From a virus (Duplodnaviria; Heunggongvirae; Uroviricota; Caudoviricetes): a stretch of 12,509 bases of DNA. The stretch spans positions 1-12,509 of the IMG/VR virus record IMGVR_UViG_2609460344_000006; one strand, written 5' to 3'. The stretch's first letter is position 1, and every line of letters starts with the position of its first letter. The position numbers are program-made. Below, piece after piece: positions 6,001 through 9,000 of this stretch.

Positions 6001-9000
6001 CTTTAACCCTGGCGGTCTTCGCCGAATAACCGGCGGCAATGGCTGACGCTGTTTTGTTTTTCCCGGACATGAGCGCCAGCGCAAATTTTCGTTTTTGCGT
6101 TGTCAGCACAGCCTCCTCCCGGGTCCAGAACGCACTCAGCCGGGTATGGTTCAGCCCATTTTTCCCGGCGTCTCATGCCGCAAATGTTAACTGCTGCCTG
6201 GTTAACATTTTCTGAAAAAGCCAGTTAACATTTTTTTTCGCACAACAAACTGAATAATAAAGATAAAAACCGCAAAAATGCCCGGACAGCCAGTTAACAT
6301 GTTAACTGGCCTGAAACGGGAATTTTTTCTCTGCGTGAGAGGGGGCGCGGTGTCCGGAGCGATCGTTTTTTACGCCGAATGATACCCCCCCCCGGTCGGG
6401 TTACAGTCCGATGATGTCGTCCGCTCTGCCACTACCTCCGGACACCTCCGGCAGCGTCGGGTCCGGCATACCACCCGCCGCTTCACGAGCAGACTTTTGT
6501 CGATGGCATTCGGTACAGAGCGTCCAGAGATTCGTCTCCTCATTACCACCACCGAACTGAAGTGCAATTCGGTGATCGAGTTCACTGTCACAGAGGCCAA
6601 CCACACGACCACAGAGACGGCACTGCCCGGCGTCCCTGAGCCAGATATGACGCTTGAGGGAAACACGTGCACTGCCACTGACACGACGCTGTTAACCCTT
6701 CAAAATATTCACCCGTCGGGTATTCAGTGTTTTGATTCTGCTCTGGAGTGTACGAAGCTCAGCCATGTAAAATCCCCGTCATATGGCAATCAGTAAAGGA
6801 AATAAATATGTCATCGAAAAACCGGACCCGCAGAACCACAACCCGCAATATCCGTTTCCCCAATCACATAATTGAACAGATCAACATCGCCCTTGAGCAT
6901 AAAGGGTCCGGTAACTTTTCAGCGTGGGTTATTGAAGCCTGCAGGAGAAGGCTGGCAACAGATGCAACGCATCTGCGCCCGGCCAGCATGACAAATAACG
7001 AGAAATGAACGTTCGGTTTCTTCCACCATCGCACCGGACAGGCGACTATGAGGGGACAACGCCGCGCTCCGTTAACGCGGTAAACCCCGGTGTGTATCGT
7101 TTTTGATTATCCCCGCACACTCACGCAGAAGGAGTTCCCCGTCGGGCTACGGTCATGGTTAATGCGGGAATACAGCGACGATACAGCGCATGATGTGTCA
7201 GGCTTGAATACCTTTATCCGTTAAAAAGGATATCAGTTAAGTTATCCCGTGCAGGGTATAAGCCATTATCAAGCCCACCAGTAGATGGGCTTTGTAATGG
7301 CTACTTCGCTTTTGCTTCCGCTCGCTTACGCCGGCGCTTTTCTTTCTTCTCGGCTTTTGCCATGTCCATGAATGCCTGCATGATCGAGTTCCGCATCATG
7401 TAGCTGACAAAGTGATGATTGACACAGCCGTTGAGGCGCAACTGCTCGCCAAACTCATCCACCGAGGCCAATGCTTCCATCACGCCCTTCTCGCCTTTCA
7501 TGAACGCTGAGAAGTCGCGCCCCGCTCTGGAGGCGCATTCAATGACACGATCACGCATCCCGGAAGCCCGGGGATTGTGATCTGCAACTGGTTAGCCAGG
7601 GAGTTAATCTCAGCGATCAAACCAGGTTTCGTGTAGCGCCATGCCGCAAGGACTTGCCCGCAGAAGCTCGCCATATCTTTTTTCTGATCAAACTCATGAC
7701 ACTTCATATTGAGCTGCGCACTTAAGCTGTTGCGATGCTGAAGTTCTCCGGTGAAGTAGTCATCCAGGACTTTATAGGCTGCATATTTAAATCCGGGGTT
7801 TAGCCATGTTGCATAATCATAAGCAACAAACTTCCCGCCATATGTTCCACCGTGTACACCGCGCTCAGTAAAAACCACAGATTCGTGGTTTTTCTCCAGC
7901 TCGGCTAAGAACTCTTTGGTCTGCTTGTTTCGCAGGTAGTGGTACGGAGATTCAGATTCACTTTTACCACTGGCTTTCCACATATCAGTGAGGCAGATCA
8001 TGCCATCTTCAGCGACACGGATTGGCTGATTGAAGAGGGTTAATGATTTCATGTCGTATACCTGTTCTTTGAAATGAACCTTTGCCGCATAGGAAACCAG
8101 CCCACCGAGGCTCGCCAGCACTAACGGGTATCCTCAAAGGCCCATTCCAAAGGGTCAGGTTCGGTGGTTATTGTGCGCTGCGGTGCGCGGTGAAATATCT
8201 GTACAAAAATGCCCCGCATCTGCGAGGCTTTTAGCATGTGGAAAAGGTAGTTTATCGTCGCTCTTCAAGATAAGGATCTATGTTGCTAACTTTTTTGTAC
8301 TTCGGATCCTGCGGTAGTCGAACGGCGGGATCATATACAAGCCATATAGATTCAGACTTGCCATCTGAACCATCTGTGTTTTTACATGAGCGTAACTTGT
8401 AATGAATGATTCTATCTACGTCAGCGTACTCGGAGGTTGCATAAACTTCATATTTATTATCTCCGTGGCAAAGAATAGTTTTAACTAATTTTGTAGATGA
8501 CATGTCTGCTCCTTTGTAATTGATGGGTATGACATATGACCACCAATAACAGTGCCATATTTCTGGTGATTATTGCAGCAACGAAATTACAAGCCCACCC
8601 GTAGATGGGCTTTGTAATGGAGAGTCGTTGTGAAAGTGGCTCTCAGACTGTCATTTTTTCCCTTTCTGTTTACCTGCCCACTGTTTTGCAATGTACAGGC
8701 AGTCATCGAAAATTCGGCCTTTTCTGCTGGCTTGTGAACAACGACGATAATGCTCTACGGCCATATCGGCACCCATTAAGGCGACATTGGGATCATATCC
8801 CTGTTTCACTAGGACGCTTTTCACATTACAGTGGATGAATTGGATCGGGTTCATGCCGACTCTCCATCAGGAAAGTCTCCTAGATCAGGAATTGATAATT
8901 GGGTCAATTGCAAGGCAATCTCTGTAGCTTTCTTGATCAATTTAATGTCACGCTTACGCTGTGCCATCAAACCACTACCTTTTTTCCCGCGATATTTGAG

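Follow-up and report, generated by a model that had tools for sequence, protein, structure and literature searches.

A conserved hairpin at the edge of a variable cargo slot in the late operon of a lambdoid prophage

Accessory genes acquired independently in phage late regions, the morons, classically carry their own promoter and terminator, and late transcription in lambdoid phages is subject to Q antitermination. Within transcription units, stem-loops are known as intercistronic stabiliser or processing hairpins, such as the repetitive extragenic palindromic (REP) elements that follow malE and, between genes of T7, the RNase III hairpins. An 'ant moron' has been discussed in PMC2629481. Intra-operon terminator-like hairpins of unknown role have been described in the late operons of P22-like phages, for which partial termination or the blocking of spurious transcription was proposed (PMC8022706). 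Homologous recombination at linker sequences and illegitimate joining have both been set out as models of phage mosaicism (PMC3233612). The two models have stood side by side for decades, and clear joints that can be placed inside a linker are few. Here, we analyzed 12,509 nucleotides of a Caudoviricetes virus (IMG/VR record IMGVR_UViG_2609460344_000006, positions 1 to 12,509; "the window" denotes this whole stretch), in which two near-identical 30-bp direct repeats, each containing a hairpin, flank a 1.3-kb segment with a KilA-N gene.

The window corresponds to the late region of a lambdoid prophage and is 99.72% identical to a prophage in Escherichia coli cM8a. Our preferred reading, to which we assign a probability of roughly two in three, is that each 30-mer is a copy of one conserved hairpin that ends cassettes in the late operons of lambdoid phages (a 'cassette-end' hairpin), and that the appearance of the pair as direct repeats is a by-product of cassette stacking. 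An earlier note on this DNA had proposed either reused terminator or attenuator units or the boundaries of a segment acquired by recombination; in refined form, both proposals are supported.

Structure and strand of the repeated hairpin

The 30-mer AAGCCCACC(A/C)GTAGATGGGCTTTGTAATGG is present at 7271-7300 and 8591-8620 with 29/30 identity, exactly as first reported, and the match even takes in one more base on the left, for 30 identities in 31 nt (CAAGCCCACC(A/C)GTAGATGGGCTTTGTAATGG, 7270-7300 and 8590-8620). With a 1-nt indel, the similarity reaches further left still (ATTA(T)C, 7265-7270 versus 8586-8590). These two are the only sites for the 30-mer in the window in a search with up to three mismatches, and dinucleotide-preserving shuffles gave 0 matches to the repeat (n = 200). 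The sole mismatch between the copies is a hairpin loop position.

7261..7302, minus strand: hairpin copy A (D2A), a two-tier fold containing the 30-mer at 7271-7300
8586..8620, minus strand: hairpin copy B (D2B), with a UACG loop, the same inner stem as copy A and a left frame 1 nt shorter; recombinant joint between the orf67-type flank (right) and the orf83/042-type flank (left)

Both copies fold, in agreement with the hairpin noted earlier in each. In the sense orientation, copy A has a UACU loop on a GC-rich inner stem of 9 bp (one U.G pair, six G-C pairs), which a 2x2 internal loop separates from an AU-rich outer stem of 8 bp; this outer stem takes in the AG of the stop codon of orf85. The folds on the minus, gene-sense strand reach -27.2 kcal/mol for copy A (z = -6.2) and -20.8 kcal/mol for copy B (z = -4.3), and those on the opposite strand are weaker (-24.0 and -14.6 kcal/mol, respectively). 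Copy A adjoins the stop codon (CTA, 7301-7303) of the 85-aa open reading frame (ORF) at 7301-7558, while copy B lies 30 nt past the stop of the 67-aa ORF at 8651-8854. The gene that copy A abuts is orf85 and not KilA-N. Across the family, the hairpin usually starts 0-7 nt past a stop codon.

Pattern searches of viral contigs, which covered at most approximately 120 loci per scan, recovered many variants with the same frame and differing inner stems: a fixed CAUUACAAA…UUGAUAAUG encloses a variable GC-rich stem. From these, 28 distinct 36-nt members were chosen by context and not by folding, either for a flank resembling left0, the conserved non-coding block beside copy A, or for an adjoining major-tail-protein gene. 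On the sense strand, a 14-pair structure is 99.7% paired across the 28 variants, with six pairs altered on both sides, and its covariation score of 0.398 compares with 0.178 in shuffles, none of which scored as high (0/500); slid controls showed 25-60% pairing only. The compensatory stem changes show that the hairpin is under selection for its structure. On the other strand the same structure is 90.3% paired, and the 37 cells unpaired solely on that strand are all C.A there, corresponding to G.U in the sense orientation. Since the whole difference between 99.7% and 90.3% consists of G.U wobbles, the structure is selected on the strand with the sense sequence, and the hairpin acts on the gene-sense strand, most likely as RNA.

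One alternative takes the repeats for ordinary rho-independent terminators that end their own units and resemble each other by common descent, with no role in recombination. Consistent with this, a GC-rich stem lies directly after a gene, the tail would form an AU-rich hybrid (7/8 A/U), and related phages have intra-operon terminators (PMC8022706). The 9-bp inner stem also falls within the stem-loop range of intrinsic terminators (approximately 5-14 bp, GC-rich). However, a U-run, scored as at least five U in the 8 nt past the stem, is absent, the tail being UUGAUAAUG in the sense and UUUGUAAUG in the antisense direction. A consensus scan that recognised a second repeat pair in the window (D6, see below) skipped the hairpins. 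Moreover, the sequence-conserved outer frame and the internal loop exceed the needs of a terminator, late transcription here would be Q-antiterminated as in other lambdoid phages, and copy B has only the hairpin in common with each of two unrelated donors. We consider this alternative unlikely. What stands of the reused terminator or attenuator is the portable unit, which occurs with nine unrelated gene-side flanks; a canonical terminator it is not, and 'attenuator or 3'-end hairpin' fits the pair better.

The hairpin might also terminate a plus-strand transcript, from ylcI/ynfO (6808-7008) or from a small ORF at 7090-7224, that converges on the cargo, with copy B as a stranded relic. In favour of this, UUUGUAAUG follows the hairpin on the plus strand, and the hairpin is in near-constant linkage to left0, which bears these plus-strand features. 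Yet the minus strand pairs better and the extra plus-strand mismatches are all C.A, as described above; the tail-gene context of the family lacks a convergent gene, and the ORF shows no third-position excess, with 18/13/10 variable sites at codon positions 1/2/3. A plus-strand terminator is accordingly highly improbable. The same codon-position variation rules out a coding ORF 7090-7224 as the cause of the linkage between left0 and the hairpin.

Rfam covariance models gave no match at E <= 1 anywhere in the window. The hairpin was not found described in a literature search that did not extend to the original genome papers of HK97/HK022 and HK620, and an earlier mention is possible.

Cargo slot, donors and joints

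The following features make up the region between the last lysis gene and the distal side of copy A.

7015..7260, no strand assigned: left0, conserved non-coding block beside copy A, attached to the hairpin in 118/124 occurrences
7301..7558, minus strand: orf85 (phrog_875), last gene of the KilA-N cassette, homologue of S107 orf82
7498..8052, minus strand: KilA-N + ORF11CD3 domain protein of 184 aa, anti-repressor- or regulator-like
8053..8204, minus strand: leader A, non-coding, between D6A and KilA-N; diverged homologue of 9740-9889
8205..8232, minus strand: terminator D6A, canonical intrinsic, with a 7-bp GC stem and then AUUUUUGU; second recombinant joint
8252..8503, minus strand: orf83 (phrog_16949), a small cassette of its own, which recurs with these flanks (8225-8595) in 16 further prophages of E. 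coli
8651..8854, minus strand: orf67 (phrog_4439), last gene of the BRO-N cassette, with hairpin B 30 nt after its stop
8851..9423, minus strand: BRO-N domain protein, anti-repressor-like
9740..9889, minus strand: leader B, directly past the Rz terminator; diverged copy of leader A
9890..9917, minus strand: terminator D6B, canonical intrinsic, after Rz; 89% identical to D6A
9956..10384, minus strand: Rz-like spanin, last lysis gene and proximal border of the cargo slot

The genes lie on the minus strand, and transcription runs from holin, lysozyme and Rz through D6B, leader B, a terminator at 9566-9596, BRO-N, orf67 and hairpin B to orf83, D6A, leader A, KilA-N, orf85, hairpin A and left0. Past left0 follow ylcI/ynfO on the plus strand and then the HNH, terminase and head genes. 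The interval between the two hairpins thus holds orf85, KilA-N, a canonical terminator and the 83-aa ORF.

Comparison of the flanks showed that the left flank of the hairpin forms one cluster in 118 of the 124 occurrences, whereas on the gene side there are nine unrelated clusters, each starting with the base that follows TAATGG. The gene-side neighbours include KilA-N + orf85, another KilA-N-like gene, Rha-type genes, BRO-N partners, orf67 + a 198-aa gene, a 95-aa ORF, a Tad2-like gene and Rz itself. Between Rz and the packaging genes there is hence a slot for variable cargo, whose constant distal edge is marked by the hairpin. Conservation of left0 falls from approximately 85% at the hairpin to approximately 40-50% near 7015. 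In one contig (L079), the cargo gene of the slot (+38..+559 from the hairpin) codes for a protein resembling Tad2 (Thoeris anti-defence 2), which shows that anti-defence genes can be cargo here besides anti-repressor-like ones.

The whole arrangement at 6900-9000 is found in one of 5426 complete E. coli genomes, and its parts have different relatives. The stretch 6200-8166 matches Shiga toxin (Stx) phages at 93-94% and 7264 to approximately 8224 matches Salmonella phage S107 at 88.6%, so that the KilA-N/orf85 part is represented in Stx and Salmonella phages at 88-94%. The orf83 part (8205-8595) matches 042-type prophages at 94%; E. coli 042 and 15 further strains have prophages that share 8225-8595 at this level. 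A tblastn search with orf83 against the phage collection gave no match, and its relatives were found only in E. coli prophages. The stretch 8586-8880 matches ten viral contigs at approximately 82%. For the BRO-N/orf67 block (8621-9750) there was no close match in the 5425 other complete E. coli genomes, and this donor type is represented solely by the viral contigs at 82%.

Alignments at copy B showed a left flank of the 042 type (upstream of orf83) and a right flank of the orf67 type of contigs L010 and L033, with the hairpin alone in common. In the ten orf67-type contigs, left0 and the hairpin are joined straight to the orf67 side, and 7301-8590 is missing exactly at the repeat. The counterpart of copy B in E. 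coli 042 is degenerate, with a different gene after it; past orf83, this genome has a D6-type terminator, directly followed by a compensatory hairpin variant and then left0. At D6A, the KilA-N leader of S107 and JLK-2012 aligns to the left and the 042-type orf83 end to the right. Both phages have the order Rz-terminator-leader-KilA-N-orf85-hairpin-left0, without the block 8233-9917. By these alignments, copy B is a recombinant joint of two unrelated cassettes and a second joint lies inside terminator D6A, and the 1.3 kb between the repeats is a composite and not one module. Of the module described earlier, with KilA-N and the 83-aa ORF, both genes are indeed inside, but so are orf85 and a terminator, and the segment has two origins. 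The proposed role as a recombination boundary is borne out by the ten relatives (L010, L033 and others) that break exactly at the repeat and by copy B, which shares only the hairpin with each donor type; a generic terminator with no tie to module boundaries, the outcome that would have spoken against it, is not what was found.

The D6 elements form a second direct-repeat pair (8205-8232 and 9890-9917, 28 nt, 89% identical) that is interleaved with the hairpin pair, and the terminator scan called both copies on the minus strand (8211-8228 and 9896-9913). Leaders A and B are 67% identical, compared to 54.7 +/- 2.6% for shuffled sequence, a level so low that a recent duplication in place is ruled out. 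The leader of approximately 150 nt is also present in S107 and JLK-2012, past the Rz terminator and ahead of the cargo gene. The leader A region holds a small hairpin (8099-8112), and some relatives have an open frame of approximately 47 codons in the leader.

The slot normally holds one cargo cassette between Rz-terminator-leader on one side and hairpin-left0 on the other. Here, three cassettes are stacked: BRO-N + orf67 ending at hairpin B, orf83 ending at D6A, and KilA-N + orf85 ending at hairpin A. The simplest history has two crossovers within short shared elements. A first crossover, hairpin with hairpin, would have put orf83 behind orf67, and a second, ectopic one, terminator with terminator, would have put the KilA-N cassette behind orf83 and left two hairpins and two terminators. 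Both internal joints inside shared stem-loops of approximately 30 bp are the outcome expected of homologous, partly ectopic crossovers, and the joints were probably made by homologous recombination between elements of approximately 28-38 bp. Phage recombinases of the Rad52 type can use lengths of approximately 30 bp; efficient pairing needs a minimum of 23-27 bp with Red-beta and of 31-34 bp with RecA (PMC3945230).

A discrete segment between direct repeats could also have arisen in place, by tandem duplication, by target-site duplication or with the repeats as attL/attR of a 1.3-kb mobile element. We regard this as extremely improbable: the segment is of two different origins and contains no genes other than KilA-N, orf85 and orf83, and hundreds of phages have the same hairpin just once. 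Tandem duplication and mobile-element ends are ruled out by the flanks, which are unrelated on both sides beyond 31-36 nt, and by the absence of a transposase or integrase.

Family members beyond the slot

The 30-mer was found in at least 119 viral contigs and in approximately 190 phage records, including HK97, HK022, mEp phages, ST64T, ES18, P22-like and Stx phages. Among the 5426 complete E. coli genomes, 319 have the A-loop form, at 1-3 places per genome, and a search of species-representative genomes with the 29-mer gave a single match, on a short contig binned into a 'Bacillota' metagenome-assembled genome. The near-absence from representative genomes and the few places in E. coli indicate that the element is phage-borne and no host repeat; the search of host and related phages suggested in the earlier note thus gave a repeat that is carried by many phages and is not host-wide. 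A host repeat of the REP or bacterial interspersed mosaic element (BIME) type was rejected on the same counts, as REP/BIME sequences are dispersed in hundreds.

As a check independent of the frame, 80 loci were fetched by homology to the major tail protein alone, and 77 of them have a two-tier hairpin 1-7 nt past the stop codon. The frame CATT(A/C)CAA…TTGATAATG is present in 45 of these 77 hairpins, and 23 have the variant CATTTCAG…CGARAATG, in which an A-U pair of the outer stem is swapped to U-A. At least eight differing compensatory inner stems occur in the same frame in this context (L256-L353 and L354-L433; e.g. L309, 2974-3010). On one side lies the major tail protein gene (phrog_853, Big_2 domain), and on the other, after approximately 5-15 nt, the ribosome-binding site of a DUF6246 gene. 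Two contigs (L320 and L326) have both a tail-context and a lysis-region hairpin. Stacked hairpins were also observed in IME10 and at least 12 viral contigs, where two family members lie 300-670 bp apart around a small gene, and contig L331 has three (12788, 13283 and 14300), two of them identical and 1017 bp apart.

Several copies deviate from the family form. In L323 (approximately 1060-1125 on the element-oriented strand), the left half of the hairpin is partially duplicated in tandem, and in L430 the hairpin is precisely missing, with TGATAATG left behind; together with L331, these oddities suggest slippage or recombination at the element. P22 (L434, 1375-1420) keeps the left frame but has a wholly different stem (GAGGCCA/TGGCCTC) and a diverged right frame, and its record annotates a 25-codon ORF across the hairpin. 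The right arm of the HK97 copy is damaged (L436, 1036-1070; GTTTGGCTT), so that some copies are not intact. The remaining cM8a prophage (40 kb, including the major tail gene) contains no further copies, and a chaperone gene lies 5 nt past its tail gene.

The hairpin most likely forms or protects the 3' end of an mRNA, where it would stop 3' exonucleases once the message has been processed, and/or serves as a leaky, non-canonical terminator or attenuator; in this way it would set the message level into the next genes. Such a 3'-end or attenuator role is suggested by its position after a gene needed in excess, that for the major tail protein, and at the ends of accessory cassettes.

Alternatively, the hairpin could be a DNA-level site, a folded strand or cruciform used by a recombinase or nuclease in the manner of attC, and the repeats the product of site-specific insertion. 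This would suit the conserved outer frame around a variable palindromic centre, the position at cassette 3' ends and the stacked cassettes; the strand asymmetry is compatible with G.T pairs in single-stranded DNA (ssDNA), and an HNH endonuclease gene lies nearby (6401-6766). However, the hairpin lies between the non-variable, essential genes for major tail protein and DUF6246 in 77/80 loci, where cassette exchange was not seen, there is no integrase or recombinase in or beside the slot, and the second joint falls in an unrelated element, D6A, which fits general homologous recombination better. HNH genes at such a position are known as terminase accessory factors in HK97-like phages. We give this alternative very little credence. 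An integron attC as such was rejected: the core sites RYYYAAC…GTTRRRY are absent from the frame CATTATCAA…TTTGTAATG, and there is no integrase in the window or the prophage late region.

A related possibility, which we rate as very unlikely, is that the hairpin is a dedicated 'cassette punctuation' site that actively promotes cassette exchange and stacking in lambdoid late operons, for instance if it folds in ssDNA while the DNA is replicated or recombined and is then a favoured substrate of phage annealing proteins or of a nuclease. If true, it would amount to an integron-like cassette system without an integrase. In a milder version, the hairpin, with its conserved CA/GA internal loop, would be a cis-regulatory RNA motif not described before and would be recognised by a specific factor.

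Several points weigh against the reading of the repeats as cassette-end hairpins joined by homologous crossovers. Since G.T pairs are tolerated in ssDNA hairpins, the strand asymmetry proves a sense single-strand structure and not RNA as such. Frame invariance in the 28-variant set is partly built in by the search patterns, a circularity that the protein-anchored set loosens for the tail context only. The terminator consensus scan called neither copy, and the post-stem tail UUGAUAAUG forms no U-run; the molecular role, be it 3'-end protection or leaky termination, is one suggested by sequence. Furthermore, the 'parents' are represented by relatives 82-94% identical and not by true donors, and the join could formally still be an illegitimate one that selection for a functional hairpin preserved. 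Finally, as the 042-type copy upstream of orf83 is degenerate, the exact crossover point within the hairpin cannot be placed.

Further observations concern the cassettes and the prophage as a whole. Where KilA-N of S107 ends in an ATGA overlap with the next ORF (7555-7558), the TGA is TGC here; KilA-N is thereby 19 codons longer (to 7498) and shares 61 nt with orf85. A strong minus-strand terminator (9566-9596, 13-bp stem and U-run) lies between leader B and BRO-N, and a 15-nt inverted repeat (9436-9450/9507-9521, 93% complementary), which could be an operator, brackets the region just upstream of the BRO-N start. In a crude promoter scan, which found 6 sites versus 5.2 expected, no minus-strand sigma-70-like site fell within 8053-8204 or shortly ahead of orf83. 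Compared to the cM8a record, the window has 32 differing positions and 3 gaps; in the HNH endonuclease gene (minus strand), GAA is changed to TAA at 6692-6694, a premature stop at codon 25, and a second position of note is about 6385. The portal and tape-measure genes of cM8a are annotated as frameshifted, and the prophage may be decaying. Its tail cluster (L437, 11820-18071, outside the window) is broken by accessory genes for an ompC-like porin, a ClpP-like protease, Arc, sodC and lom, as well as a second ylcI/ynfO gene followed by a P22AR-type anti-repressor, none of which is bounded by the hairpin family.

Comparison with known systems

Altogether, the locus is a three-donor mosaic with both internal joints in stem-loops of approximately 30 bp and with natural relatives for each donor arrangement, a clear but unsurprising case of mosaic phage genome building. 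In addition, it defines a hairpin family that is absent from Rfam, shows strong covariation and is found at the edge of a hot cargo slot and, in other phages, also past the major tail gene. The hairpin could be used as a landmark for accessory or anti-defence cargo in prophages and is a candidate part for tuning expression within operons. These practical uses are modest, and current views are not overturned; the locus provides a well-resolved example and a definable family, and no new principle.

Among described elements, the hairpin resembles the boundary or linker sequences of lambdoid phages (the modular theory of Susskind and Botstein, HK620-type), with approximately 30-38 bp conserved at gene boundaries between unrelated flanks. 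It is a short conserved sequence of this kind with joints within it, and it is just about as long as phage recombinases need for pairing (PMC3945230). It differs in that the linker is itself structured and has a selected function of its own, as seen from the compensatory changes and the strand asymmetry. Recombination may be targeted to this hairpin linker or may merely succeed there.

With the intra-operon hairpins of P22-like and lambdoid phages (PMC8022706), the family shares a GC-rich stem-loop placed after particular genes in one antiterminated late operon. In contrast to them, it lacks a U-run, has a sequence-conserved AU-rich outer stem and an internal loop, and occupies two defined positions, the end of a cargo cassette and the site just past the major tail gene. 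The KilA-N, BRO-N and orf83 cassettes in turn are like morons in being present or absent between conserved neighbours, with high flux at one location, and in having no role in lysis or assembly. Unlike morons, they are stacked and share border elements, no promoter-like site was found ahead of KilA-N in the crude scan, and the downstream element is not a canonical terminator.

As in stabiliser hairpins, a stable stem-loop lies directly past the stop of a gene whose product, for example the major tail protein, is needed in larger amounts than that of the next gene, and the two-tier helix with an internal loop recalls the RNase III sites of T7. RNase III sites, however, span approximately two turns (20 bp or more), compared to which the copy A helix (8 + 9 bp with the 2x2 loop) is of borderline length and the family helix, approximately 17-19 bp in total, is at or below the usual length. 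REP differs in being host-wide, whereas the hairpin is confined to 1-3 places per genome in 319/5426 E. coli genomes. Finally, integron attC sites show the same combination of a conserved outer frame, a variable palindromic centre, cassette 3' ends, stacked arrays and single-strand asymmetry, but with the core consensus and the integrase absent and the element also present between non-variable essential genes, the likeness is an analogy only.

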